A stretch of DNA of 64,000 bases from a virus (lineage: Duplodnaviria; Caudoviricetes): the IMG/VR virus record IMGVR_UViG_3300036783_000080, positions 86,651 through 150,650 of that record; one strand, given 5' to 3'. Position 1 is the first letter of the stretch; every line of letters begins with the position of its first letter. A model generated the notes under the pieces. That model saw nothing but the letters and a program-made list of their open reading frames with translations, was not told where the DNA came from and did not search any database. Positions 4,356 through 40,556 of the stretch are shown here, piece after piece. The translations under genes were made by a program, and so were the position numbers.

Positions 4356-4613
4356 TTAAATTTGTTCCTCTTCCTCTCCTAAAACATTTAAAGCAAGGTT
4401 TCTCATTGTTTGTATAGCCACGATTGAACGGTTATCTCTTTGTATTCTGCTTGTATCAACTTGCGTTATATCTTTTAAAGTTTTACGTAGTCTTAAACAT
4501 TCTTCAGCAAGAGATGCTATGTCAGCTACCTTTAACCAATCTGGAGCTTCATCCCCGTAATGTTTAAAATAGTCATAGAGTTCTTGAAGCTCGTGCGTTG
4601 TAAATTTACTCAT
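4356..4613 (-). CDS. hypothetical protein
   Basis: ORF track; likely start MSKFTTHEL overlapping deaminase stop. Confidence 0.65.
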   Translation of the reverse strand: MSKFTTHELQELYDYFKHYGDEAPDWLKVADIASLAEECLRLRKTLKDITQVDTSRIQRDNRSIVAIQTMRNLALNVLGEEEEQI

Positions 4614-4950
4614 CTTCAGGAAGTCCGAACAGTTTAGATACATGAACGCCATTTTCTCTTAGATAATCAATACCATCCGTCACTCGGTACTCTTCATGAT
4701 ACATAACTGTTAACACTCCTTCTTCAACTAATCGCTTTGCGCAGTCTAAACAAGGAGAATGAGAGACAATCACCATTTTTGGGTTATCGTAACTCATCTG
4801 TTCCAAAAGATTGATTTCTGCGTGAGTACATCCGCAAGCTCCTGGGACATTTGAACATTCTTTATGATTATAGTTTCGAGCTTTACCAATCGTTCCGTCA
4901 ACAGTAATACCGATGGCCACAACTTTCATACGTTTACATTTATTGTCCAT
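4606..4950 (-). CDS. dCMP deaminase-like protein
   Basis: HAEINL and SPCLDC zinc-binding deaminase motifs; YHEEYR. Confidence 0.85.
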   Translation of the reverse strand: MDNKCKRMKVVAIGITVDGTIGKARNYNHKECSNVPGACGCTHAEINLLEQMSYDNPKMVIVSHSPCLDCAKRLVEEGVLTVMYHEEYRVTDGIDYLRENGVHVSKLFGLPEDE

Positions 4951-5938
4951 CCCATTCACCTTCTTCATCATCTTCACGTGGAGTGTTCATTTGATTCTCG
5001 ATATCTTCATCATTTTCGTTATCAAAAATCTTCTCTACAACCTGAACCAACCAGTTTGAATCGAAATTGAATGTTGGGTCTTCTAAGCGTTTAGAATGTA
5101 CCGTATCAATAAGAATGCTCATATATGTTAAGTCTACACCAGTGAGTTGGTCTTCTAACACTAATGGGTCATTCAGATTCAATTCACTCACTTGGAATAT
5201 CATCTTCAACACTTGTCCTGCGTTGATTGTGTACCCTCTAGCGATGAACTTTCTCATACGAAGAATAGACGCAATCGGATATTTTGAACCTGAGTAACGA
5301 AGTTCTTTTGTCATTATAGATGTGAGAGTTTCAGCAGGAAGCGTTAACTTACCAGTATTGAATAAACTTCCACCTGTCCAATAAGCTACGCCAGTTGGCT
5401 CCCAATACGCTTGACAGTGAATGTAATCAAAGTTCTTGTGAACTTCTTCTGGGCTGCCGTGGAATCGCATAATTAATTGAACACCATCTGATAACGTGAT
5501 AGCGTTTGAAGATAGGAAAATAGGTCTGAAGTTCTTTTCGTCCTTTGGTTTCTTTGACTCATCTTTGGGTTGTAATCCTAGTCCTCTGCGGTTGATTTCG
5601 TCTTGTTCCATTCCTTCCGTATCTTCAGCGATACCTTTTGAACGAATCATTACTTTGACACGTTTCTCTTCAAGAGATTTTAAATCCACACTAGCATGAG
5701 TGTCGTGATGTTTATTCCATCTATCTACATAATAACCAGCAACCGCTCTACAAGTTTCAAAATCTTTAAAATAGATATCATAGTCATTCGGCTCTTCATT
5801 TCCTAATAGGGAAACAATAGCACCCCCAGAAATAAAACAATTCTTTTCAACCAGTTCACTCACCTTTTTATCATCTATAGACTTTACCCAGTTTTTGTGA
5901 ATACGTGCTAATCTTGATTTAATCTGTTTCGTTAACAT
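4940..5938 (-). CDS. pol-beta superfamily nucleotidyltransferase
   Basis: FISGGAI...PNDYDIYF motif like the CCA-adding/poly(A) polymerase head; FDYIHC. Confidence 0.7.
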   Translation of the reverse strand: MLTKQIKSRLARIHKNWVKSIDDKKVSELVEKNCFISGGAIVSLLGNEEPNDYDIYFKDFETCRAVAGYYVDRWNKHHDTHASVDLKSLEEKRVKVMIRSKGIAEDTEGMEQDEINRRGLGLQPKDESKKPKDEKNFRPIFLSSNAITLSDGVQLIMRFHGSPEEVHKNFDYIHCQAYWEPTGVAYWTGGSLFNTGKLTLPAETLTSIMTKELRYSGSKYPIASILRMRKFIARGYTINAGQVLKMIFQVSELNLNDPLVLEDQLTGVDLTYMSILIDTVHSKRLEDPTFNFDSNWLVQVVEKIFDNENDEDIENQMNTPREDDEEGEWDGQ

Positions 5939-19289: not shown

Positions 19290-19914
19290 TTAACTTGCTT
19301 TTGCGTGGTCTTTCAAGTTCTTCTCGTGTTTCTTCTGCCATTTTTCGTCAATGTAATCGAATACATTGTCATACTCATCTAAATCTTCCAATTTGTTTAA
19401 TCCAACTAAATCTCCATAGTTACGTCCAATCTCAATATCCGCAACTAATGGAACATTAATCCAATCAAAGTGAGGATATTCCATAATTCCTTTTACAATC
19501 TCAATAACTTCCTTAAGTTCTGGAATGTAAACATCAAGCACAATACTATCGTGTACTGTAATAACAATCATTGACTTCATTCCAAGTTCTTTTAACTTCT
19601 TGTCAATCTTAATGAGCGATGTTACTGTAATATCTGAACCTGTAGATTGAATAGGAGCATTTACAGCCTGTCTCATACAATCTCCAACGATACTACGTTT
19701 GTTTGAGTCAACACCAGGAAGCCTTCTATGACGTCCTGTAAGCGTTTCTACATATTTATGCTTCTTAACAAATTTGGCTGTATCGTCAAGCCATTTCTTC
19801 ACACCAGAGAACTCAGTGAAGTACGCATCAATGAACTCTCTCGCTTCTTCAACAGATACTTTCATATCTTGTGCTAGTGAATATTCACCTTTTCCGTAAA
19901 TCAAGCCAAAATTT
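19290..19914 (-). CDS. family A DNA polymerase, exon 2
   Basis: NFGLIYG, RQAVNAPIQST, TVHDSI (motif C); in-frame join with exon 1 gives 882 aa. Confidence 0.9.
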
Positions 19915-20864
19915 CAATATTTATATATTGTATAAGCATTTAACTTACACATTCTATATGTTTCCATATAGTTTAGACTATATCTTCACCGTAAGGTGCT
20001 GGGCACTCGTGGATGGATTATCGTTTTGCCTAACTCACCATCTAGTCGTTGAACCTTCTCCATACTTTAAAGGCTTTCAGGAGCTTGGATGCTGATTGTC
20101 CAATCATCTTGTTTTTCAAACATTCACGTTTACCGTTTCCAGTTACGTTGTAGTACAAGAAGCTCTAAGGAGTTTCCAGCAATTCACCCAGTTTATTTAA
20201 AAGGCTGCAAATTATATATTGGCTATTATTGTTCCATCTTCTCCTCTTATTATGTGTTCGTTATGATGACAAGGTTTGCAAAGTATCTCAAGGTTGGAAA
20301 GCTCGTTGTTGTCTCGGTTTCTATCCTTGTGATGTACGTCTAAAGTATGCAAATCCCCATCTTTCCCGCAACGATTACATTTATGAGAAAAGTTTTCGAA
20401 AGCGAGCTTTCGATATTTAGAAATATTTTGACAAAGGTCACAACGTTTTTGATTGTTACCTGTTTTTGTAAAATGTTTCCCACAGGTTGGACATTTAATG
20501 AATGGCACTCTATATATTTTGTATGACTGGTCTCTTCTGTTATTCACTTTATTTCGACACTCACTGCAATACTTCTGGTTGTAAGCTGAAGGGTTGAAGT
20601 CTCTTTTACATTCGTTACAAGAGACTACTTTGTCCAATAGTCTCCCCTTTTGACTTCTCCCTTTTTTCTTTCGTTCTTCTCTACACGTATTGCAGTATTT
20701 TTGAGTTCCAATCTTCGCTTTAAATGTCTTTTCACAGTTTTTACAAATTTTGTCGTATTTCGCCACATCAAAAGTTCTAATCATATTTGTTCTCTTCATC
20801 ATTATCACCTCATAGTTAATATGAAAGTAATATAGAGAACAAAAGCCAAAGATTTATTTAGCTT
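19915..20864 (-). mobile_element. group I intron (phage IA-type) in the DNA polymerase gene
   Basis: Core elements AAUUGCUGGAAA, AAUCAGCA, UCAACGACUA, AAGAUAUAGUC; P9 hairpins; U|...G| boundaries restore KAVNFGLIYG. Confidence 0.9.
20212..20808 (-). CDS. intron-encoded HNH homing endonuclease with three zinc-finger repeats
   Basis: 3x CxxC...QK(Y/R)CxxC, then CNRC...DVHHKDRNRDNNELSNLEILCKPCHHNEH. Confidence 0.85.
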   Translation of the reverse strand: MIMMKRTNMIRTFDVAKYDKICKNCEKTFKAKIGTQKYCNTCREERKKKGRSQKGRLLDKVVSCNECKRDFNPSAYNQKYCSECRNKVNNRRDQSYKIYRVPFIKCPTCGKHFTKTGNNQKRCDLCQNISKYRKLAFENFSHKCNRCGKDGDLHTLDVHHKDRNRDNNELSNLEILCKPCHHNEHIIRGEDGTIIANI

Positions 20865-22888
20865 ACAGCCTTTGCTTTTGTACGGTCATCGTCTGTAACT
20901 TCTTCTATCGGTTTCTTCATAGAGATACTAGCAGCATATATGTGTAAATCATGACCATCTCTGTACGCTTGAATTAATCGTTCATCACCAGAGAATATCG
21001 CAGCAATACGAAGTTCCAGCTGAGAGTAATCGGCTTGTAGGATGAGTCCTTCATCTCCATAGCGGCTTACGAACATCTTTTTAATTCCATACTGATATTC
21101 GAACGAGTACGGGTTGTTTGACTTCCTTGGGAAGTTCTGAGCATTCGGTGCTTCTGATGCTAAACGTCCTGTAACCGTACCATGTAACATAAAGGTTGGA
21201 TGTACCAGTCCATCTTCCCCAATCCAAGTACGAGCTGGTTTGATATATGTTCCATAAACTTTATCCAATCTTCGCCACTCTGACAGCAAGCTCGCTATTG
21301 GATGTTTGTCCTTCAAGTACTCTAGTGTTTCTTTACCTGTAGACAAATCTGAAGTCTTTGGCTTGAACTTCTTATCTTTTCTCTGAAGCTCTTTCGCTTT
21401 GTCTGTCAAGAAAGGTGTTTCCAATCCTAACTTATCAAACAATAACTCTCTTAATTGAGCGGTTGAACCAAAGTTGAAATTGAAGTTCTTATATTTGTTG
21501 TACTTAAGTATCTCTTTGTCACGTTCATCTTTTGGTTTCTTCATCTCTTCTTGACGAATTTTGAACAGATTATGTTTCTCTCTTTCTATCTGTACAACCT
21601 CAGGGAACTCTCGCAGCTTCTCTTCGATTTTAGCCATACGAGCAGGGAATGCCTCTTCATACTCTGCAAGTCGCTCAGGATTCAAGCGTATGCCGTTAGA
21701 TTCAATGTTTCGTAACATATAAGAAGCTTCCAACATAATCTCTTTGAATACAAAGTCCCAAGCTTCATTTTCTTCAAGGTGTTTCTTGAACGTCATATAA
21801 AGTCGGAACGTACAGTCAACATCGGCAGCGGCGTATTCTCTTAAGATTTCCCAAGGAATGTTGTCATAGTTATGTTGCATCGCTTCTGGAAGAGTTTTCT
21901 TGAACTCATCAAGGTCGTTATCGTAACCGCCCATATCAGTATGTTCCCAAGCTAAATCTTTAAGCCCGTGTCCACCACGTTCTTCTGAAACTGTAAGATA
22001 ATGACATAACATTGGGTCGAATGCGAAGTTTGCTACATCAATGTTATATTTAGCAAGTAGCCACTTCATATCGAACTTACCATTATGTGCCATTTTCTTA
22101 ATCCGTTTGTTTTCCAGTAGCCGCTTAATTAATCCTTTAACTTTATCAAGTACCATTCCTGGCCAAGTAAACTCTTGATGTTCAAGCGGAATCGTTACAC
22201 CACGATGCGTTCCATCTGTTAGAGAGATACAGACAATTTTCTGATTCTTCAGAAATGGGTTTAAGCTCGTGGTCTCTAAGTCAAAACAGTTCCATTCGGC
22301 TTGTTCAAGTCTCTCAATCTCTTTTTCCACGTCTTCGTACGTTTCCAAATAGTTATAATTGACTGACTTTCTTGTTAAAACATCTCGTCCTTTTTCAGCC
22401 AACTCTTTTAAGTTCTGAAGGTCTTTCGCAAAGTTCTTTGAGTGTTTCGGCTGAGTGAATAAGTTTTCTGGGTGAATGATTGGGAAAATGATATAATCAT
22501 CTGTCTCAACCGCTTTCCCTCTGTACTTTGTAATCCCTGTCATACCATAAATCTTTTTCAAAGATACATTCCCCAAAGGTACGATGATATCAGGCTTGAT
22601 GACTTTTAGTTCTGCTTCAAATATTGGACCACATTCCTCAATTTCTTCTTTTACAGGAGGTCTGTCATCATCCAAAGCATACTTCACATATCCTGTGAAG
22701 TAACATTCCTCTTTGGGGTCAATTCCTAACTGTTTAAGAGCTGCCTTAATGAGCTTCCCAGCTCTACCTGTCATATACTTCCCTTTGGCATATTCCTCTT
22801 CAGTAGGAGCATCAGCAACAAACATTATCCTAGCAGATTTCTTCCCTGTACCAAATAACGGTTCATCTTTTAGTTCATCAATGGACAT
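20865..22888 (-). CDS. family A DNA polymerase, exon 1 (UDG-like domain, 3'-5' exonuclease, polymerase)
   Basis: DLET, HNGKFD, YAAADV, TGRLAS, ADYSQLELR, RTKAKAV. Confidence 0.95.
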
Positions 22889-23009: not shown

Positions 23010-23342
23010 CTATTCAGCTTTCTTTTTCTTTTTCTTGTCAAGGAAGTCTTGTACATTTAATTCTTCCACAGCTTTATCTAAGTGTGAACCAGATTTAATT
23101 TTAACAGCCATTTTAGGAGCAATTTCAAGCTCTTCATTTGTTTGAGGATTGAATCCTTTGCGTCCAGAGCGTGCTACTGGTTCAGCAGTGATTAATCCTG
23201 CAATTTGTACTTTTTCTCCAGCTTCTAAGCCAGCAGCGATTGATTTACCCACTAATGATACTGCGATGTTTGCTAATGCCTTTGTCATTTTTCCACTTTC
23301 ATCTAATTCCACCATTTTGTCTAATAAGTCTGCACGATTCAT
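23010..23342 (-). CDS. HU/TF1-family DNA-binding protein
   Basis: MNRADLL...GEKVQIAG...RKGFNPQTNEELEI. Confidence 0.9.
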   Translation of the reverse strand: MNRADLLDKMVELDESGKMTKALANIAVSLVGKSIAAGLEAGEKVQIAGLITAEPVARSGRKGFNPQTNEELEIAPKMAVKIKSGSHLDKAVEELNVQDFLDKKKKKKAE

Positions 23343-23397
23343 ATTAAAAACCTCCAATAATTTGTTTTAGTTTAGTTTATATCTATATGAAAGCCAG

Positions 23398-23832
23398 TTA
23401 GCTGGCTGTGTTCCCTTGTAGCCATTTTACAAAGTCTGCTGGATTGTTTCGTAGGATATATGTTACCCAAAGCATTCCATAGTTGGCTTCATCGCCGACA
23501 GTGTCAACTTTACTTTCACCAACTTCATCGTCTTTGCTATGAAGTGTCATATTTTCCAGTCTGTCAAACTTACGTGCCATATTAAAGAAGATATCTTGTT
23601 CACCACGTTTACACCAAGAACGTCCATAAGAGCCTTCTTTGCTGTATTGTAGATGAGATAAGGACACGAATGCTAAAGTCATCAATGCGTTGTCCTCTCT
23701 GAGTTCTCCTTTGTTACCAGCGATAGTTTGATGTACAAGAGCCGCTTGTTGAAGTAATCTATCAACATTGCTGTCCTCTTGAACTGGAACATACTTTTTA
23801 TACAATTCATATACTTCTTCGCTATTGACCAC
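23398..23832 (-). CDS. nucleotide-modification-associated domain 1 (Nmad1/DUF1599-like) protein
   Basis: KEGSYGRSW...RKFDRL...ESKVDTVGDEANY pattern. Confidence 0.7.
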   Translation of the reverse strand: MVNSEEVYELYKKYVPVQEDSNVDRLLQQAALVHQTIAGNKGELREDNALMTLAFVSLSHLQYSKEGSYGRSWCKRGEQDIFFNMARKFDRLENMTLHSKDDEVGESKVDTVGDEANYGMLWVTYILRNNPADFVKWLQGNTAS

Positions 23833-23864
23833 TGGTCTTTCATCTCCTTCATATTATATTCTGA

Positions 23865-24269
23865 TTATAGCTGAATCATTCTCTTTGCAAAAGTCTTTTG
23901 AAGAACTTTTTGTATATCTTTCCAATCAACTGTGGACATGTACAGGTTTCTGTCGTCAATATAAATGTCCGCTCCAACTTTTCGTGCCACCTTTGGGTGG
24001 TACTTTTTCTTGACTTCAGGTAACTGGTCATTAACTGCTGCGAATAAATCTAACATATTGTGTTGTTTCAGAAACTTCATCGCTTCATAAAGGCTCTCCG
24101 CTGTACGACAAGTCCATAAAACCAACACAACATCCTTTCTATTCGCTAACCAAGTTAACACCTCTTTACAGTGAGGACGAAGAGTCATCTGGTGACTCAT
24201 CGCCTTCTCCTCTGTAATTGTTCCGTCAAAATCAACCGCTATAACAAATTTATCTGGTAAAAATTCCAA
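23865..24269 (-). CDS. HAD-superfamily phosphatase (putative nucleotidase)
   Basis: AVDFDGT, LWTCR, RKVGADIYIDDR; likely TTG start. Confidence 0.85.
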   Translation of the reverse strand: MEFLPDKFVIAVDFDGTITEEKAMSHQMTLRPHCKEVLTWLANRKDVVLVLWTCRTAESLYEAMKFLKQHNMLDLFAAVNDQLPEVKKKYHPKVARKVGADIYIDDRNLYMSTVDWKDIQKVLQKTFAKRMIQL

Positions 24270-24291
24270 CCGCTCCACTCTCCTTTTGTTT

Positions 24292-25455
24292 TTACACTCG
24301 CTTCCCTTCAATATAACGGATTTTATCAGCAGAATAATGAACATATAGCTCTTTAAACGTTGAAGAATCTGCATAGAACTTATGAAGGAAGAACAAGCAA
24401 GATAACTTCCACTGACAATCTTTCATTTCTGATAACACTTGAATCATTAAGCCAAACTGTTTTAACTTATGAGCACGATACGCAATCATAGAGAAAACAT
24501 TTGTACGGAAATACTCGTCAGGAATTGCTGTTGCAAAAGCCATAATCTGTTCTTGTACTTCAATTTGCTCGAAAGCAGCATCATTATGAAGTGTTTCAAC
24601 AAATCCTTGATTAAATAGTACATCCAAGAAAGCAGTTGTTTCTTGTAATGTGGATTTAATTCTTGGCTCGTTTTCAAACGTGAAATGTTTTACTTCTGGA
24701 GCTTCAAGTTCATCCCCTGTTAACCCGTATGCCTTTTTGATTTTGTCTGACTCTTTATATCCATAATCCTTTAAATAGATATGTAATGAGTCAGTAACTT
24801 GGTTATATGTTCCCACTTCAATTCCTAACCAAGAAGCAACCATTTCTTGAAGCGTAGCAAACTGACATAAGTTCGCTCCAAATGTTCCGTAATGTAAGTC
24901 ATTACTTCTGTTATAGACTGTTAACTGAAGTTTGTTTTTACGGATTTTAAAACAAAGAGTCATATTACAAGGGAAGTCTTTACCCTCATAACTTGAGTTG
25001 TCAAACATCGGATTCCAAATTTGAGCAACCGCTTGTCGTGTATCCCAGTCTTTAAGTAGTTTCTCATACACATCTACCAGTTGGTCAATAGGATTGATAA
25101 TTTGGCCAGTCAAGTCGTTCTTATTCCAAAAGCGTAGTCGTTCCCCATAAGGAGCGTTAAAGTACACGCCATCATCAGAGAACTCGCCCATATTCTGGTT
25201 GTACTTAAGTAAGAACTCAACGTCAGAACGTCCCGCAGAAATCCAAAGAGCTTCTGCTTGTTGGAAGAATGGGTTGATACGTCTATCCTCCAAGAAAGTA
25301 ACACGGTTCAGAGGGTTTGTGAACTCAACAATTACGGGACGTAATTCTTTGATGTCTTTTCCTCTTGGAGCAACAATGTCTCCTTCGTTTTCTAATGCAA
25401 CGAACGCATCCATATAAAGCTGTGATGAATTGTCATTTGTAAAGATTTTACCCAT
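24292..25455 (-). CDS. dUMP hydroxymethylase (thymidylate synthase fold)
   Basis: YGERL, DTRQA, KDFPCN, NRSNDLHYGTFGANL, SLHIY; Asn at the dUMP-specificity position; C-terminal extension; context of hmU kinase and transferase. Confidence 0.85.
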   Translation of the reverse strand: MGKIFTNDNSSQLYMDAFVALENEGDIVAPRGKDIKELRPVIVEFTNPLNRVTFLEDRRINPFFQQAEALWISAGRSDVEFLLKYNQNMGEFSDDGVYFNAPYGERLRFWNKNDLTGQIINPIDQLVDVYEKLLKDWDTRQAVAQIWNPMFDNSSYEGKDFPCNMTLCFKIRKNKLQLTVYNRSNDLHYGTFGANLCQFATLQEMVASWLGIEVGTYNQVTDSLHIYLKDYGYKESDKIKKAYGLTGDELEAPEVKHFTFENEPRIKSTLQETTAFLDVLFNQGFVETLHNDAAFEQIEVQEQIMAFATAIPDEYFRTNVFSMIAYRAHKLKQFGLMIQVLSEMKDCQWKLSCLFFLHKFYADSSTFKELYVHYSADKIRYIEGKRV

Positions 25456-25490
25456 AGTTTGAAAAACTCCTTTCAGTATCTCTTACACCT

Positions 25491-25522
25491 TAATAAAACG
25501 GATAAGTGAAAAAGTTTCTCCT
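25491..25522 (-). promoter_or_regulatory. phage middle-type promoter
   Basis: AGGAGA-N17-GTTTTATTA. Confidence 0.75.
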
Positions 25523-25605
25523 GAATACATAAATTATGTGGAAAACCTTAACTTCATAAAAGATTCCCACAGTAAACCCTATGTTATAAACTAGGAGGTG
25601 ATACC

Positions 25606-25944
25606 ATGGGTGCGGGTAAATACATTCCAGGTTTAGGAAAGATTTTCAAAATCGGTAAAGATGAGATTGAACCATCTGCGTTAGCAGGCAGTGGCGATAC
25701 TTCTGCTTTGGAAGCAAGAATCAAGCAACTTGAAACTGATTTAGCTACTGTTAAAAGTACAGCTAACAGTGCCAACTCCACTGCTACTACTGCCAAATCA
25801 ACTGCAGATACTGCTAAATCTACTGCTGACACTGCGAAGTCTACAGCTGATAGCGCAACAACGAACATCAACGGTTACAAAACATCCAACGACGCTAAAG
25901 TCACTGGCATTGACAACCGTGTTAAAGCATTGGAAGCAAAATAA
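25606..25944 (+). CDS. coiled-coil protein with AKSTADT heptad repeats
   Basis: RBS AGGAGGTG; 7-aa repeats; followed by terminator. Confidence 0.8.
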   Translation: MGAGKYIPGLGKIFKIGKDEIEPSALAGSGDTSALEARIKQLETDLATVKSTANSANSTATTAKSTADTAKSTADTAKSTADSATTNINGYKTSNDAKVTGIDNRVKALEAK

Positions 25945-25946
25945 TG

Positions 25947-25975
25947 AGAAAAGGAAGCTCATAGGCTTCCTTTTC
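25947..25975. terminator. bidirectional terminator between convergent genes
   Basis: AGAAAAGGAAGC/GCTTCCTTTTCT. Confidence 0.8.
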
Positions 25976-25980
25976 TTTAT

Positions 25981-26691
25981 TTACATAAATTCTTCACCAA
26001 ATCCCCCATTCTTACGCTTCTGCTGGATATTCTCAATAATTCTTACAGTTGTGTTAAAACGTTCAGCAATGACCACCTGAGTGAGCTTTCCTTCCATTAG
26101 TAATAAAACAACTTCATAGCGTTCTTTGTAACTTAATGTTTTGTTTCCTTTCGGAACAAATGGAATATATTTCTCATCCATGTCTGGGTCAATATGACTC
26201 CAAGTTCTTCCATTCTTTATACTTCTGATAGTTCCTTCATCATGACCAAGTTCCCTCGCCACATCTGCTGCTGTTTTATCTGGTTGTGAATGGAAAATTC
26301 TTTTTATGTGAAGAGCTTGCTCAACAGTTAATGTGGGAGCGTTTACTGTCTTATGTCTCTTTCTTCTTTTCATATCATCCATATTATCTTGGTGCGTTCC
26401 CAGTTCTAAATGTTCTGGATTGATACAAAGACTGTTATCACACTTATGTCTGACAACCACACCATTTGGTATTGCTTCCCCGTGAGTAATAAACCACACA
26501 TAGTGCGTGACTGTTAGTCCCTTTCCTTTGTTTCCTCTGGCTTGTGGATAATTACTTCTGCAAACTCTGGGATAACCACTCACCGATATCTTATGACTCA
26601 CGCACTCCCAACAATCTTTATTCTTAATATATTCTATCGGTTTACATATTTTCTTAACATCGTTCGGCTCTTGTAATGTATATGTTTTCAT
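25981..26691 (-). CDS. free-standing HNH endonuclease with C-terminal HTH domains
   Basis: CWEC, VRHKCDNSLCINPEHLELGTHQDNMDD; two HTH-like segments. Confidence 0.85.
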   Translation of the reverse strand: MKTYTLQEPNDVKKICKPIEYIKNKDCWECVSHKISVSGYPRVCRSNYPQARGNKGKGLTVTHYVWFITHGEAIPNGVVVRHKCDNSLCINPEHLELGTHQDNMDDMKRRKRHKTVNAPTLTVEQALHIKRIFHSQPDKTAADVARELGHDEGTIRSIKNGRTWSHIDPDMDEKYIPFVPKGNKTLSYKERYEVVLLLMEGKLTQVVIAERFNTTVRIIENIQQKRKNGGFGEEFM

Positions 26692-26694
26692 TAA

Positions 26695-26741
26695 AAATCC
26701 CTCCTGGGTAATATAAGGAGGGATTTCAAAATTATACTCTT
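26695..26741 (-). promoter_or_regulatory. middle-type promoter inside an RBS-sequestering hairpin
   Basis: AAGAGT-N18-CTTATATTA; 11-bp stem AAATCCCTCCT/AGGAGGGATTT. Confidence 0.7.
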
Positions 26742-27823
26742 GGTTTCAAGTTGTCAACATCTGGAGTTCTTAGTTTCATCTTTTTCTTTGGACGTTTTCC
26801 TTTTGCAAAGTCATATCCTCTTTCTGTACAGTAAGAGTTGAAATACTTCTGACTTTCGCAGAACCATCCTTCAAAACAACGTAAATCCAGTTCAGCATCT
26901 TCGTTTTGATATTTGTATTCAAGTCCTAACTTCTCAAACATAGCGTTGGCAACACTTGCTGTAAAGAATACAAGTTCAGTATAAGACATATTACCTTTGT
27001 TCTCAAACACATAGTCAACACCCTTTTTGCAACCTGGCCCGCAATTCGTCCAATAATCCGCTGTCCAGTTAACAAAAGGAATATCAGTCATTTCTTCAAC
27101 CATAGCTAAATCCAAGCACACTTCATAAGAGTTAAACATTCCAACAGCAGGAACTCGTGTCAGATAGTTGACTACTGATTCCATGTTATTCTTTTTATTG
27201 AATACAAAGTCAGCAATCTCATCTAAGTTGTCAATTACATATTGTAACAGACAAATAGCATTCTCTGTTTTGTCGCCGCTCTTTTCTTTATCTGGATTGG
27301 CTGATTTTAAATCGTTTACAAAGTAAGCGTCAGTGAAGATTGTTTTTCCTTGACGTTTACGTTCTCTCAGGTTGGCTTTTGCTCGTTCCCAATCAGATGA
27401 GAATGTTTCTGGGTGAATGTATCCGATTATATCCCATGTTTCAGGTCGTACAAACAAGCGATAGATGAAAGTGTTTAACAGAAGATACTTTCTTGACTCA
27501 TCTGTATCCTTTAAGTTTGGAAGAACGTTATCAATGTAATGTAACGTTACACGGTCAAGCTTTCTGTCAACATTAGTGAAATGATATGTTCCCATGATTG
27601 GGTCTGTTGTCCAAGGCTTTGGCTCCTGCTCCATAACACGTTTGTACCAGATATTTTGACGTTCAACCATATTTCTGAAGTACATTTCAAAGAAAGTTAC
27701 TCCTGTTTCTGGGTCAACACGCAACTTTACATCATCATTAGGTGTATTAATGTATTGTTCTTCCCAGTAAGGTTTATTTTCACGATTTAACGAACGCAAG
27801 AAAGCTCCATCAGTTTGTTTCAT
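26732..27823 (-). CDS. aGPT-Pplase1-type (amino acid/amine:DNA transferase) thymine hypermodification enzyme
   Basis: ERQNIW...PWTTDPIM..YHFTNVDRKLDRVT, GPGCKKG, EGWFCESQKY. Confidence 0.85.
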   Translation of the reverse strand: MKQTDGAFLRSLNRENKPYWEEQYINTPNDDVKLRVDPETGVTFFEMYFRNMVERQNIWYKRVMEQEPKPWTTDPIMGTYHFTNVDRKLDRVTLHYIDNVLPNLKDTDESRKYLLLNTFIYRLFVRPETWDIIGYIHPETFSSDWERAKANLRERKRQGKTIFTDAYFVNDLKSANPDKEKSGDKTENAICLLQYVIDNLDEIADFVFNKKNNMESVVNYLTRVPAVGMFNSYEVCLDLAMVEEMTDIPFVNWTADYWTNCGPGCKKGVDYVFENKGNMSYTELVFFTASVANAMFEKLGLEYKYQNEDAELDLRCFEGWFCESQKYFNSYCTERGYDFAKGKRPKKKMKLRTPDVDNLKPRV

Positions 27824-27835
27824 TTCAATTCCTCC

Positions 27836-28105
27836 TTATAATTTGTTTACATAGTATGTCTTTACAATATGACAAATAGTTACTTCTTCTGAGTACATAC
27901 CGCCAGTCTCAATAGACTCGGCTTTGTAAGTGGTTCCAAGGTCTACAATTTCATATCGAACGTTGTCAATTGTTATTCTTTCCCCAACCATATGTCTCAT
28001 ATCCGTTAGCGATTTAGATGTAAACGACATCACATCTTTATCTTCGCACATGAATATAATAGTATGTTTTACATTCTCAATTGGTTGTATCTTCAATTCT
28101 GTCAC
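27836..28105 (-). CDS. hypothetical protein (89 aa) between kinase and transferase
   Basis: ORF track; tight packing. Confidence 0.65.
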   Translation of the reverse strand: MTELKIQPIENVKHTIIFMCEDKDVMSFTSKSLTDMRHMVGERITIDNVRYEIVDLGTTYKAESIETGGMYSEEVTICHIVKTYYVNKL

Positions 28106-28106
28106 C

Positions 28107-28811
28107 TCATCTCGAAAATTCTTTTACATAGTTTAAGAATTGTTTTAAAGTGTCCTGCTTCTTGATAGAACTATTATCAACGACTATACTGTTTAATCCT
28201 TCATTTGCGAACTTCTCAGCGTTACGTTGTACAGTTCTCCACTTTCCTTCAATCTGTTCAACTTTGATTTTATGGAAAGTATCAGGAGAACGTCCTTTAA
28301 TACGTTCTAAACAAACTTCAAAAGGTGGTAAAAGGTTGTATATGAGAATGTCTCTATGTGGGCTTTGTCTCTCTTCCAGCTCTTTAAATAGATTTAAGTA
28401 TGTTGAGTAAATCGTTGAAGAAATTACACCCTCCATAAGTATGCTGAAAGGAGTCTCCCATAATGATTCAAGCGTTTGTAGTGTCTCCTCATTCCCTTTA
28501 AATCCATCCAAGCCGCCTGTCTTCGTTCTGTAACGTCCCATTGCTACAAATCCGAATGAAGGGAAAACAGTTGCTCTATCTTTTCCATCAATCGTGAATA
28601 TAAATGCTCCTCTGTCTTCTGCTAACATAGATAGTGGAACTGTAGATTTTCCTGAACCATTACATCCTCTAATATTAACAAGCATTAGTCCTTTGCGGTA
28701 CTTTATTCTGCCGCCGCAGTTTTGTTTCAATGTTTCTATGAACTCTGATACTTCAATTCGTTTTAGTTTGATAGAACTTCGTTCCATTTTATCACCTCTA
28801 GTATCAATCAT
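28107..28811 (-). CDS. P-loop kinase, 5-hmdU DNA kinase family
   Basis: NIRGCNGSGKST, MGRY...GGLDG, LMEG, PFEVCLERIKGR; second possible start at 28787. Confidence 0.8.
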   Translation of the reverse strand: MIDTRGDKMERSSIKLKRIEVSEFIETLKQNCGGRIKYRKGLMLVNIRGCNGSGKSTVPLSMLAEDRGAFIFTIDGKDRATVFPSFGFVAMGRYRTKTGGLDGFKGNEETLQTLESLWETPFSILMEGVISSTIYSTYLNLFKELEERQSPHRDILIYNLLPPFEVCLERIKGRSPDTFHKIKVEQIEGKWRTVQRNAEKFANEGLNSIVVDNSSIKKQDTLKQFLNYVKEFSR

Positions 28812-28813
28812 AG

Positions 28814-28870
28814 TTTCACCTCCAACGAGTTAGTACATAATAAAACGTTGGAGGTGAAAAGTTTTCTCCT
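28814..28870 (-). promoter_or_regulatory. middle-type promoter inside a perfect 14-bp inverted repeat
   Basis: AGGAGA-N18-GTTTTATTA; arms 28814-28827 and 28846-28859. Confidence 0.8.
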
Positions 28871-31487
28871 ATTCTTCAGTAGGTTGAAGTCCACTATAAT
28901 GAGCCTTGTCTAACACGTTGAGCTTTGCTTTACTACCTACAAGGAAGCCTTCAATGGTTTGTAAGAATGCTTGTTTGTAGTCTGGTTTAACAACCCACAT
29001 ATCGTCAACTTTTTCATAATACGTCATAACCTTCTCAAATAGCTCTTCATCTTTGAGTTGGTCTTCAAGCTCTGAAATCTCTTCTGGAGTGAATGACGCA
29101 AAGCTGACTTCAATCATTGGAGTCCAATTCTTCAGTTTGTCTACAACTGAAACGACATCCTGTCTTGATACAATCCCAGGAATAATAGGTGAGATTGCTA
29201 GAATTGTATAAACGCCAGCATTGAAGCACTTAATAAAGCTCTCAATGATTTGGTCTGGTGTATGAGCCTTCTTCGTTGGATAGACTGACTTCCATTTGTT
29301 GTTATCCATAGTGTTCAGATGAACTCTGACTTCACTCTGTGGATGTTGAGCTAATGCTTCCACAGCCCAATCGGGGACAACTCTTCTTGTTTCAACAGAA
29401 ATTGGAATGTCATGTTTTACGCAAAACTCAAAGATTGGTTGAGTTGCTTGATGACGTTCCTCACGATAATGGAAAGGTTCAATTGGGAAGTAACACTCAT
29501 CGTAACGTTGTCCAGCATCAAGATTCTGCTTCAGAAGTTCGCCATAATGTTTGTTCACACGTTTACTTCCATACGGTGCTGCAACAAAGATTCCTGAGCT
29601 TCTTTCCGTTTTAATTGGTTGTCGCACTTCCTCTTCCTCCTGTTCAGGTTCTTCCTGCTTCTGTGGTTCTGGTTGTTTCTCTTCTGGCTCTTCAAATTCT
29701 TCCTCTACTCTTTTGGCTTCATCTATTTCAGCCATAAGCTCAGCATACGTTTTTCCCTGCGGAGGTTTCACAGTTATTGCTTCTTTATCTTCTTTTTCAG
29801 GTTTGGGTTTATGAACAATGTTATCTAATATCTCGTTAACATCATCATCTCCATCCTCTTCTTCATCGTCGTCATCATCGCCATTCCCAGCCATCTGCTC
29901 CATTAAACTTGCGATAAAGTTGTCTGGCTCTTCTGACTGTTCTGCTTTCTTCTCTGGCTGTTTCTTCTCTTCTTTGACTTCTTCTTCAGGAGCTTCTTCA
30001 ACCACGTCCTCCTCTTCAACGTCACAAGGCTCTGGTTGAGGCTCTGGCTTTGGTTCTTCCTTAACCTCTCCTTTTGGCATATTTACAGGAGCTGACTTTG
30101 GTGGGAGAACTAAGTCATTGTATTCAGAAATCAATAGGATTTCTTTGTCAAGTTTCCCTAAAATGCTTTCAAACTCAGATTTATTCGCTCTTTGAACTCC
30201 ATTTAATGAAGCTACAAGAACAAGTTGTTGAAGTTCTTCTGGAAGAATATCCAAGTATTCTCTGTAGTCCATGTCAGTCGTTCCAGAACGTAGGATATAA
30301 TTGACAACCCATTCTACACATTGCACACGGAAGATTCCATCAATGTCAAGAATCGCTTGTTTAATAGTATAGTTATCCACATACTCCAATGCACGTTTCG
30401 TAGGTCTAGAAACAATACCTTTCTCAAGCATCGTTCCAAGGACTCTGTGAGCAATTGTCATATCTGCTACTTTCATAGCTTTTACCCATTCTTTGTAGTA
30501 TTGAGATTGTAACATCTCTATCTTCTTGTCACCTTGTTCAAAATCACCATAACGGAAGTCTTGTTCAGCAAGCTCCTTCAGTAACCACTCACGCTCAAAG
30601 TCTTCCTTCGTTTTGAAGACTGGGAACTCTCTTTCTTCGTAATAATGTTTAATCCATTTGTGGTTCTCCCAATATGCATAACGGGCTGCCCATCTCTCTT
30701 TATCCCGTCCAAAGTTCTTCTGCCACAGACGGTTGATTGTGAAAGTCATTAAGCCGCTACCCTTTTTCATGTGTCCGCCAATCCATTTAGAAGGTTCAGC
30801 AAATCGGAATAAATCATCATAGATATGTCCATCCCATACTAGTGAACGAGAATAAACATTGTTTGTGATACCTTTGGATGAGTAATTGAAATGCCAAGTT
30901 AATGGGCAAGGAATCCGTTGATGTTGAGAATCGCTCCAACGTTTCATTTCCATAAGTTCTTTCTGGATGTATCTGCGTCTTGTATATTCTAACAAGTCAC
31001 GCTCATAATGCCAGAATGTAACAATCCCTTTGTCATTCCCTTTATCTTGTAGCAGAAGGTCTTTTACAGCGTGTAACTGACCACGTCCTCCAACACGTTG
31101 CATATTCTGATATGAAGTGTTAGGAAAGATTTCATCACGCTCCATCATAATATCAAGCTGTGTTCTATCGTGTTCAGGTCGCCCAGTTTCAAGTCGGTAG
31201 TCCCAATCAGTCGTTCCGTGCCCTTTTACACGTGACATACGTCTTTGGTCATATCGAACATCTAAGCCACAACCGATACCCAGTTCACCTTCTACAACAT
31301 CAGAGTTAACACGAAGATACCAAAATAATGGGTCTGTATTGTGAGGCATAAACGTAACATAGTTGTCTTGCGTGTTATTTACTTGAAGGAAAACATTTCG
31401 CATATCGTAATTATTGTCAATCATTGCCTTCAAGGTTTTCATATAAGCATCCCAACAGTTTTCTGCTTCAATAACGTTAAAAGCCAC
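28869..31487 (-). CDS. multidomain protein: divergent thymidylate-synthase-fold domain, acidic linker, radical-SAM-like barrel lacking CxxxCxxC
   Basis: GQLHAVKDLL...RIPCPLTWHF...YSRS...IYDDLF; C-terminal EPF...ISVETR...HLNTMD...AGVYTILAISPIIPGI. Confidence 0.6.
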   Translation of the reverse strand: MAFNVIEAENCWDAYMKTLKAMIDNNYDMRNVFLQVNNTQDNYVTFMPHNTDPLFWYLRVNSDVVEGELGIGCGLDVRYDQRRMSRVKGHGTTDWDYRLETGRPEHDRTQLDIMMERDEIFPNTSYQNMQRVGGRGQLHAVKDLLLQDKGNDKGIVTFWHYERDLLEYTRRRYIQKELMEMKRWSDSQHQRIPCPLTWHFNYSSKGITNNVYSRSLVWDGHIYDDLFRFAEPSKWIGGHMKKGSGLMTFTINRLWQKNFGRDKERWAARYAYWENHKWIKHYYEEREFPVFKTKEDFEREWLLKELAEQDFRYGDFEQGDKKIEMLQSQYYKEWVKAMKVADMTIAHRVLGTMLEKGIVSRPTKRALEYVDNYTIKQAILDIDGIFRVQCVEWVVNYILRSGTTDMDYREYLDILPEELQQLVLVASLNGVQRANKSEFESILGKLDKEILLISEYNDLVLPPKSAPVNMPKGEVKEEPKPEPQPEPCDVEEEDVVEEAPEEEVKEEKKQPEKKAEQSEEPDNFIASLMEQMAGNGDDDDDEEEDGDDDVNEILDNIVHKPKPEKEDKEAITVKPPQGKTYAELMAEIDEAKRVEEEFEEPEEKQPEPQKQEEPEQEEEEVRQPIKTERSSGIFVAAPYGSKRVNKHYGELLKQNLDAGQRYDECYFPIEPFHYREERHQATQPIFEFCVKHDIPISVETRRVVPDWAVEALAQHPQSEVRVHLNTMDNNKWKSVYPTKKAHTPDQIIESFIKCFNAGVYTILAISPIIPGIVSRQDVVSVVDKLKNWTPMIEVSFASFTPEEISELEDQLKDEELFEKVMTYYEKVDDMWVVKPDYKQAFLQTIEGFLVGSKAKLNVLDKAHYSGLQPTEE

Positions 31488-39680: not shown

Positions 39681-39966
39681 TGATTGTTCCTCCAATTAAT
39701 GTGAATTCTCTTCCTAAATCTTCATTGTTATGTCCGTAACTTACACCCAAGATTCTAATTCCAGGAGAATGTTTATGAACACAATCTTCACTGCGGTATG
39801 TGCGTTTGTAATACAGAAGTTTACCTTCCATATTTTCGATTGGATTGATAATAAGCTCTGGTTTGTTCCAACCTTCCATTTCAATAGCAACGCATACAAA
39901 TGTCGCTCCTGCTTCTCTAGCACGATTGAATGTATCTTCTACAACTTGCATATTAAATTCTCCCAT
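39667..39966 (-). CDS. hypothetical protein (99 aa)
   Basis: ORF track; PELIINP motif. Confidence 0.7.
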   Translation of the reverse strand: MGEFNMQVVEDTFNRAREAGATFVCVAIEMEGWNKPELIINPIENMEGKLLYYKRTYRSEDCVHKHSPGIRILGVSYGHNNEDLGREFTLIGGTINENK

Positions 39967-40556
39967 TATTCAATTCCTCCTCCAGTTGAGTTGAATCCGT
40001 CAAACATACGGTCTGTCTTTCCAGCAGCTTCCATAAATTCATCAAGAGACTGATGTTTCTTTGTGCTAACTTTCGTGTAACGTTTAATGATAAGTTGAGC
40101 AATTTGCTGTCCGTTTTTAATAACAACAGGCTCTGTATTCAAGTTAATCAACGCAAGACGAATGTTTCCACGGAATGGACTGTCAATTGTTCGGCATAAT
40201 AAGTCCAGTTTTGCTTTAGAAGTGCCGCTGCGTGTATCAACCATAGCATAGTGTCCGTTAGGAATTGCGATGTGAAGTCCAGTTTTAACTGTTAACGCTT
40301 CACCTGGTTGTAATGTATATGAACCATCTTCAGACCATTCTCCATCATTTAAACGAGCATCAAAGATTGGTACATTCAGTCCAGCATCTCCATCCTTACT
40401 ATATTCAAGAGCAAAGTCCTCAAGCTCACAGAAGTAAGGCATATTTGGGTTTCCAGTAATTTGCTGTTGTAAGTGAGTAATTTCTGTTTGTAAATCTCCT
40501 ACCGTTTTTTGAACATAGTCTTTAATTTCTGGTGTTAACATATTATCTCTCCTCAA
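39966..40556 (-). CDS. dut: trimeric dUTPase (divergent motifs)
   Basis: DAGLN, TRSG, TIDSPFRG, IAQL, DRMFDGFNSTG. Confidence 0.85.
   Translation of the reverse strand: MRRDNMLTPEIKDYVQKTVGDLQTEITHLQQQITGNPNMPYFCELEDFALEYSKDGDAGLNVPIFDARLNDGEWSEDGSYTLQPGEALTVKTGLHIAIPNGHYAMVDTRSGTSKAKLDLLCRTIDSPFRGNIRLALINLNTEPVVIKNGQQIAQLIIKRYTKVSTKKHQSLDEFMEAAGKTDRMFDGFNSTGGGIE

Follow-up and report, generated by a model that had tools for sequence, protein, structure and literature searches.

The final 64 kb (64,000 bp, bases 86651-150650; hereafter, the window) of the complete 150,650-bp virus record IMGVR_UViG_3300036783_000080 from IMG/VR contain a locus, at window positions 23010-31487, that we consider likely to encode a thymidine hypermodification pathway of the SP10 type in a Bacillus myophage resembling Nachito (Herelleviridae, Spounavirinae). 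By analogy with SP10, the default product is most probably thymine plus alpha-glutamylthymidine. The cluster itself is of the known SP10 type; what we did not find described in the literature covered is the domain make-up of its 872-amino-acid (aa) protein, i.e., an N-domain with a predicted thymidylate synthase (TS) fold and a C-domain predicted to be a radical S-adenosylmethionine (radical-SAM)-type barrel without the Fe-S cluster. Over the locus, 92.9% nucleotide identity at 85% coverage was found to Bacillus phage Nachito (OP380492), a member of the Herelleviridae, Spounavirinae. Among published phages, JC307 of B. anthracis (PMC13118943) is closest to Nachito. Nachito and vB_BanM-JC307 are both ~91-93% identical to the locus at the nucleotide level, and their proteins are 93-97% identical.

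To compare the locus with SP10 (AB605730), the window proteins were searched by tblastn, which gave collinear matches from gp178 to gp191. The gene order is kept from the sigma-like gene to the DNA polymerase, with a 247-aa sigma-like protein (40% identity to gp183), a 155-aa protein (43%, gp184), the 872-aa protein (55% over the full length, gp185), the kinase (62%, N-terminal half of gp186), the PF18723 protein (67%, C-terminal half of gp186), an open reading frame (ORF) on the plus strand (38%, gp187), the dUMP hydroxymethylase (55%, gp188), a 144-aa protein (56%, gp189), an HU protein (39%, gp190) and the DNA polymerase (65%, gp191). The first-pass annotation of this DNA had correctly recognized a co-oriented gene cluster (minus strand, except for the gp187-like ORF), and had described its gene set as non-standard and as pointing to an undescribed base. 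Given the gene-by-gene match from gp183 to gp191, the "non-standard" set is the SP10 set, in which the 872-aa protein is gp185 and of which the 89-aa ORF at this locus is not a conserved part. The gene set thus lends no support to an undescribed base, and its occurrence in SP10 is what that annotation had itself named as speaking against one. The same module was found in phages Goe26 and SBSphiC, the Lysinibacillus phages LysYB1 and LysYB2, YungSlug, and Nachito, and metagenomic contigs with the SP10 organization have been reported (Lee et al. 2021; PMC8989533). Earlier work listed the kinase (gp186N), aG/PT-PPlase1 (gp186C) and gp185 ("Radical SAM") among the genes unique to hypermodifying phages, and reported SP10 to lack a clade 2 transferase (Lee et al. 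2018, Table 3; PMC5889632).

The kinase and the transferase-like protein next to it are the clearest members of the module (genes are on the minus strand unless stated otherwise). The DNA kinase for 5-hydroxymethyldeoxyuridine (5-hmdU), 5-HMUDK (28107-28811), is matched by Pfam PF18748 (HMUDK_HMUD1) with 73.9 bits against a cut-off of 27, occurs as a single copy in the genome, and has the P-loop GCNGSGKST as well as the NIRGCNGSGKST motif by which it was originally recognized as a P-loop kinase. The clade 1 aGPT-Pplase (26732-27823) is matched by PF18723 (HMUDK_hel) with 172.9 bits against a cut-off of 25. The same model also matches the ViI-type clade 1 protein (SJ3 ORF171) and the C-terminal half of SP10 gp186, so the name aGPT-Pplase1 had been given correctly. 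Its Cys-Glu..Lys-Tyr motif, with C322-E323, is invariant in an alignment of eight diverse members, and is predicted to be catalytic; a Cys-Glu dyad is essential in clade 2 aGPT-Pplases (PMC8989533).

The genes that would supply 5-hydroxymethyluracil (hmU) are also present. The dUMP hydroxymethylase (24292-25455), of the SPO1 gp29/SP10 gp188 type, is matched by Pfam PF00303 (Thymidylat_synt, E 5e-20) and phrog_5131 (E 2.8e-117), and shares 52% identity with the characterized dUMP hydroxymethylase SPO1 gp29 and with the SP8 gene, bearing out its first identification. It is the sole PF00303 match in the whole 150,650-bp genome, in which a search for ThyX found none. Elsewhere in the window, as had been noted, lie a dCMP deaminase (4606-4977; Pfam dCMP_cyt_deam_1, E 2e-9; so annotated in Nachito) and a dUTPase (39966-40556; Pfam dUTPase, E 3.9e-16; 56% identity to SP10 gp172). 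Because the complete set of pre-replicative hmU genes, the kinase gene and that of aGPT-Pplase1 are all intact and under purifying selection (ratio of nonsynonymous to synonymous substitution rates, dN/dS, of 0.04-0.11 for the pre- and post-replicative pathway genes versus Nachito), hypermodified thymine is likely in the phage DNA. The expectation that the genome carries such a base therefore stands as an inference from a complete and intact gene set, with an end product that is not readable from the sequence.

As had been stated for the locus, no pyridoxal phosphate (PLP), flavin or intact radical-SAM enzyme was found there in Pfam or PHROGs, the only radical-SAM signal being a sub-threshold one inside the 872-aa protein. 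SP10 likewise has no clade 2 aGPT-Pplase, PLP or flavin enzyme, and neither a decarboxylase nor a radical-SAM or flavin step is required for its alpha-glutamylthymidine. The locus shares with ViI, M6 and PhiW-14 the kinase family, the clade 1 aGPT-Pplase family and the logic of a 5-phosphomethyl-dU (5-PmdU) intermediate (PMC8989533), but those phages have a clade 2 aGPT-Pplase plus tailoring enzymes, and no PLP decarboxylase, active radical-SAM enzyme or flavin lyase is found here. A search of this genome with the M6 clade 2 transferase gp51 gave no match at E 1; it was run without a positive control and so shows nothing by itself. The virion DNA of SP10, PhiW-14, M6 and ViI contains thymine and the hypermodified base but no hmU (PMC8989533).

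The 872-aa protein (28869-31487) is the SP10 gp185 ortholog (BLASTP, 55% identity over the full length, E 0), and is 96% identical to Nachito UXR28899 with a dN/dS of 0.057. It consists of the N-domain (residues 1-470; 30078-31487), an acidic low-complexity linker of 147 residues seen in the translation (471-617; 29637-30077) that is poorly conserved relative to SP10 and nearly absent in YungSlug, and the C-domain (618-872; 28872-29636). The two flanking domains were assigned using AlphaFold2 (AF2) models, Foldseek and hhalign.

The N-domain is modeled as a TS-fold core with a helical extension (AF2; pLDDT 78.6, pTM 0.82). In Foldseek its best match was the CMP hydroxymethylase MilA (E 1.4e-10), followed by dozens of thymidylate synthases, with a probability of 1.00 to MilA and >30 TS chains and TM scores by target of 0.5-0.67. 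A profile comparison with the family of the phage's own dUMP hydroxymethylase (hhalign; 96% probability, E 4.8e-9) aligned C194 (codon 30906-30908) with the catalytic C163, R214-S215 with R183-S184, and D225 with the base-reading N195. Across 12 homologs, D63, G74, D94, W95, D164, R191, C194, R214, D225 and E305 are invariant, and the R214-S215 pair is invariant in the N-domain alignment too. These comparisons indicate that the N-domain has a thymidylate synthase fold and keeps the catalytic cysteine. Its likeness to classical TS, MilA and T4 gp42-type enzymes comprises the fold, the catalytic Cys, an Arg-Ser pair 20 residues after it and a base-reading position 31 residues after it. It differs from classical TS in having no Pfam match, an Asp in place of the base-reading Asn, a 200-residue helical extension, and a position fused or adjacent to DNA-level enzymes. 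Moreover, in the hhalign alignment the folate-binding Asp ("RSND") falls in a gap and the phosphate-binding Arg pair is unmatched ("DSRQ" versus "NDKG"). Single-sequence searches with the N- and C-domains against PDB chains returned nothing significant, and the N-domain profile gave weak matches only, 18 of the 21 being TS. The domain is rare, with 15 representatives matched among 1.84 billion proteins, and a related-locus search with a narrower alignment of it retrieved only three viral contigs, one of them SP10. A TS fold is undescribed for gp185 in the literature that we covered; Iyer et al. 2013, which lies outside that coverage, may have noted its TS-like nature.

By fold and profile comparison, the C-domain is homologous to the glycinyl-thymine isomerase gp53 of phage M6, a radical-SAM enzyme, but is without the Fe-S loop, which it has lost. 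Its AF2 model (pLDDT 85.7) matched SuiB, spore photoproduct lyase and PFL-AE in Foldseek (E 2e-7 to 1e-5), its sequence matched phrog_9252 ("DNA repair photolyase"; E 1.8e-11), and hhalign aligned it with gp53 over 207 columns (98.1%, E 8.5e-14). The two proteins share the same barrel fold class, whereas the CX3CX2C segment of gp53 (the CTVGCAFC loop) has no counterpart in the C-domain and falls in a gap. With this loop missing and a single Cys invariant among 10 homologs, radical chemistry is excluded for the C-domain as far as sequence tells. The Pfam Radical_SAM model scored 18-20 bits on the domain, below its cut-off of 29.5, and this is the only Radical_SAM signal in the 150,650-bp genome. 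The C-domain profile found no match among PDB chains, and a search for short stand-alone homologs found none.

The genomic context of the N-domain in other contigs was also profiled. Distant stand-alone homologs lie directly upstream of 5-HMUDK genes in five unrelated contig types, in one of them (L019) with a 251-aa gene between. In L013 the homolog (P0010) is followed by 5-HMUDK and a TS-family gene; in L014 (P0008) by 5-HMUDK and PF18723; and in L016 (P0013) by a distant kinase homolog (E 3e-10) and PF18723. The homolog P0009 of L017 and L018 stands with 5-HMUDK, PF18723, TS, an HD 5'-nucleotidase-like gene and a polymerase, and P0006 of L019 with the 251-aa gene, 5-HMUDK, DUF2284, TS and HD. 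A further homolog, P0011, has two radical-SAM genes and methyltransferases but no kinase nearby. From these gene neighborhoods, the pairing of a TS-like gene with the DNA kinase appears conserved well beyond Bacillus phages, which links the N-domain with what becomes of phosphorylated hmU in DNA. Neither of the longer homologs, P0006 and P0009, was found to carry the barrel when tested for it.

The TS-like domain and the barrel are not always joined. No barrel is present in the stand-alone TS-like proteins, and a 639-aa protein of LysYB1 (L005:4045-5964) has a cluster-less barrel of 43% identity behind a different N-terminal part of ~380 residues. This part was tested and is not TS-like, and no TS-like paralog is encoded by the LysYB1 genome. 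In L013 and L019, the TS-like gene and 5-HMUDK are accompanied by no PF18723 or aGPT-Pplase within 8 kb (DUF2284 follows the kinase in L019), and these contigs may make a different product via the TS-like enzyme alone.

Taken together, we propose the following route. Before replication, the dCMP deaminase and dUTPase would supply dUMP to the SPO1-type dUMP hydroxymethylase, as suggested by homology to SPO1, SP8 and SP10, and hmU DNA would be built by the phage polymerase. After replication, 5-HMUDK would phosphorylate the hydroxymethyl group of hmU in DNA, an activity shown for SP10 gp186 (PMC8989533). Two cysteine enzymes, i.e., the clade 1 aGPT-Pplase (C322/E323) and the TS-fold domain of the 872-aa protein (C194), would then act via a C6-thiol adduct and an exocyclic methylene, with the (pyro)phosphate as the leaving group. 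One branch would lead to thymine, and the other to an N-linked amino-acid adduct, most probably alpha-glutamylthymidine. In relatives, the kinase makes 5-phosphomethyl-dU in DNA, and the Cys-Glu dyad of clade 2 aGPT-Pplases forms an exocyclic methylene that is attacked by the amino acid, or that borohydride converts to thymidine (PMC8989533).

SP10-type phages have to perform two polymer-level reactions (hmU to thymine and hmU to glutamylthymine), and exactly two candidate thiol enzymes are present, with a clade 2 transferase reported to be lacking in SP10. A thiol enzyme was reportedly proposed for the polymer-level synthesis in SP10 by Witmer in 1981. Tentatively, the TS-fold domain of the gp185 family could be that enzyme, attacking C6 of phosphorylated hmU in DNA and installing glutamate (or making thymine) via an exocyclic methylene. 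As for the division of labor, we lean, without holding it to be an even bet, towards the 872-aa protein as the glutamate:DNA transferase, with thymine being formed by the clade 1 aGPT-Pplase. This is because a clade 1 protein is shared by all four groups of phages in which leftover hmU is converted to thymine, the folate (hydride-donor) site of TS appears lost in the N-domain, and the barrel fused to it derives from an enzyme that binds thymine with an N-linked amino acid. An assignment with the two roles exchanged is almost equally likely. In the arrangement that we prefer, the TS-fold domain would do the chemistry, and the Fe-S-less gp53-like barrel would only hold the flipped base or the adduct.

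The locus does differ from SP10. The kinase and aGPT-Pplase1 are fused in SP10 (gp186) and separate here, with the 89-aa ORF (27836-28105) between them; split kinase and PF18723 genes are also found in LysYB1, YungSlug and contig L021. A homing endonuclease insertion and a SPO1 gp30.2-like gene of the haloacid dehalogenase (HAD) type are present here and absent there, and the host belongs to the B. cereus group here versus B. subtilis. The split genes, the 89-aa ORF, the insertion and the lack of SP10 gp218 ("kinase2") add no recognizable chemical step.

The 89-aa ORF, which like the 872-aa ORF is indeed present on the minus strand as the first-pass annotation had it, is a real gene. Relative to Nachito its synonymous divergence (dS) is 1.83, versus 0.3-0.45 for flanking genes, with a dN/dS of 0.20; the protein is only 51-54% identical, and nucleotide identity is 48-72% exactly over the ORF and 90-98% in the flanks. 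We thus regard it as a mosaic cassette, an old divergent allele that arrived by recombination, restricted to the lineage and not a conserved part of the module. It forms a sharply bounded island of divergence and is the only small gene there that is kept or exchanged as distinct alleles. Only two relatives were found among 5.8 billion protein clusters, no family matched in Pfam or PHROGs, and an atlas feature search gave only hits below 0.9. SP10, Goe26, SBSphiC and contig L021 lack it, and the LysYB1 ORF at the spot is unrelated though also of 89 aa. No relationship was seen on comparison with that ORF, with the YungSlug ORF between the same two genes or with the SP10 gp186 linker. A complex prediction with the kinase and aGPT-Pplase1 scored 0.00, which is not evidence either way.

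These differences bear on whether the cluster makes an undescribed thymine adduct, because the transferase, the 872-aa protein or the 89-aa gene is unlike that of SP10. We consider this unlikely. The aGPT-Pplase1 differs from SP10's by 33% and the C-domain by ~50%, the 89-aa ORF, found only in the Nachito lineage, is under purifying selection, and no gp218 homolog is present. Clade 2 relatives of the same fold use glycine, serine or putrescine, so specificity shifts within the wider family (PMC8989533). However, all SP10 hypermodification-specific genes have orthologs here in the same order with no new enzyme family among them, the TS-like N-domain is 74% identical to that of SP10 gp185, and conservation across the module does not extend to the 89-aa ORF.

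It is more doubtful still that the TS-fold domain acts on free nucleotides, e.g., as a cytosine- or hmU-nucleotide pool enzyme, with the 872-aa protein loosely tied to the DNA-level steps. Its top structural match is indeed a CMP hydroxymethylase, and it has Asp for the base-reading Asn, as in dCMP-specific relatives. The Arg pair and folate Asp of nucleotide-level TS enzymes are nevertheless unmatched, the domain is fused to a homolog of the DNA-acting M6 gp53, five contig types have its stand-alone homologs next to the gene for the DNA kinase, and the genome already encodes a dUMP hydroxymethylase of the SPO1 type. That the post-replicative genes are inactive and plain 5-hmdU is left in the virion DNA, as in SPO1, SP8 and CP-51, with which the pre-replicative genes are shared, is very improbable, given that all four hypermodification-specific genes are intact (dN/dS 0.06-0.2) and conserved across six phage lineages.

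Several points weigh against an SP10-type pathway with the roles proposed above. Our literature search found no modification chemistry published for Nachito or JC307. No function is reported for the clade 1 aGPT-Pplase or gp185 in any phage in the literature covered. The aGPT-Pplase1 is only 67% identical to that of SP10, and amino-acid specificity is not readable from sequence. No gp218 homolog was found by tblastn against the whole genome at E 1e-3. The substrate of the TS-like domain is uncertain, because the folate Asp and Arg pair are unmatched and the Asn is replaced by Asp as in cytosine-specific relatives. Finally, the LysYB1 barrel occurs without a TS-like domain and the TS-like genes of L013 and L019 without a nearby aGPT-Pplase, and the parts of the module are therefore not strictly interdependent.

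The remaining genes of the locus have parallels in plain hmU phages. SPO1, SP8 and CP-51 have the same order of dUMP hydroxymethylase, gp30.2-like HAD gene, gp30-like gene, TF1/HU and a polymerase with an N-terminal uracil-DNA-glycosylase (UDG)-like domain, but lack an aGPT-Pplase1 gene. The HAD-type phosphatase-like gene here (~23865-24278, start approximate) is a SPO1 gp30.2 homolog with motif I DxDxT present as DFDGT and a match to phrog_1238 (E 1.6e-23), and every Pfam HAD-type match is below cut-off. Its homologs adjoin the hydroxymethylase in SPO1, SP8 and CP-51, are also found in Listeria and Enterococcus phages, and are absent from SP10, Goe26 and SBSphiC. Being common in plain hmU phages, it looks to be part of a general nucleotide-metabolism block, in which it probably helps drain thymidine nucleotides. 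The early call of a HAD phosphatase is thus supported by the motif and phrog_1238 and not by Pfam, and the gene is not specific to hypermodifying phages. In the unrelated hmU-module contigs L017 (13009-13659) and L019 (13921-14505), an HD-domain YfbR-like 5'-deoxynucleotidase gene follows the TS-family gene; it occupies the place that the gp30.2-like HAD gene has in the window, SPO1, SP8 and CP-51, and looks like a non-homologous replacement of the nucleotidase step.

The HU/TF1-like DNA-binding protein (23010-23357) was confirmed by Pfam Bac_DNA_binding (E 8e-18; 64.9 bits versus a cut-off of 22.4). An Nmad1-like protein that had been proposed was not recovered, as none of the 11 locus proteins had an Nmad-type match in Pfam or PHROGs, where the presence of an Nmad1-named model is uncertain. 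The sole unassigned candidate is the 144-aa gene (23398-23832), which is SP10 gp189-like and matches phrog_22490 ("replication protein"). A hint from the LysYB1 annotation that this gene is TS-related was tested, and it is not. Two genes had been overlooked in the first-pass annotation, i.e., an HNH homing endonuclease with a helix-turn-helix domain (25981-26691; Pfam HNH_3, E 1.4e-11, and HTH_28) and the opposite-strand SP10 gp187 homolog (25606-25944, plus strand; 66% identity to Nachito). The HNH gene, an insertion outside the pathway, is flanked by the aGPT-Pplase1 gene and the gp187-like ORF. SP10 lacks it, and Nachito has an unrelated 214-aa gene there, which marks the spot as an insertion hot spot.

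Beyond the HU gene lies the family A DNA polymerase (19290-22888), which is split by an insert (intron ~19915-20857). Positions 8-213 of the DNA_pol_A profile are matched in exon 1 (20858-22888), and positions 217-380 in exon 2 (19290-19904). The insert contains a group I intron (19954-20227; Rfam RF00028, 86.3 bits) and a 198-aa ORF (20212-20808). The Nachito polymerase is in contrast annotated as a single uninterrupted coding sequence without the polA intron. Exon 1 also encodes an N-terminal UDG-superfamily domain (Pfam UDG, E 1.4e-22), and such a domain is likewise found on the polymerases adjoining the hmU modules of L017 and L018. Near the start of the window, a 261-aa protein (1808-2593) is named "methyltransferase" in Nachito and has a weak, below cut-off match to glycosyltransferase Maf N-terminal (E 1.3e-4).

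The locus thus represents the SP10 system in a second phage lineage, which includes the cultured phages Nachito and JC307. The Nachito record already labels an "aGPT-pyrophosphorylase clade 1" and a "P-loop nucleotide kinase". The JC307 paper took the "thymidylate synthase" and dCMP deaminase genes as an "independent dTMP synthesis pathway", with modification unmentioned (PMC13118943); from the homologies above, hmU synthesis is the more likely role of these genes. The DNA of phages of this lineage is probably hypermodified, which is relevant when Nachito and JC307 are restriction-mapped, sequenced or used to study host defence. For SP10, neither the enzyme that attaches glutamate nor the one that turns leftover hmU into thymine is assigned in the literature covered, and the TS-fold domain with Cys194 and the clade 1 aGPT-Pplase with Cys322 provide two candidates for these steps. 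The C-domain offers a natural case of a radical-SAM enzyme kept after loss of its cluster. If the role suggested for the TS-fold domain is true, it would constitute, next to the clade 2 aGPT-Pplases, a second and non-homologous class of DNA-level C5 transferase, one taken over from nucleotide metabolism and coupled to a disarmed radical-SAM "reader" barrel.

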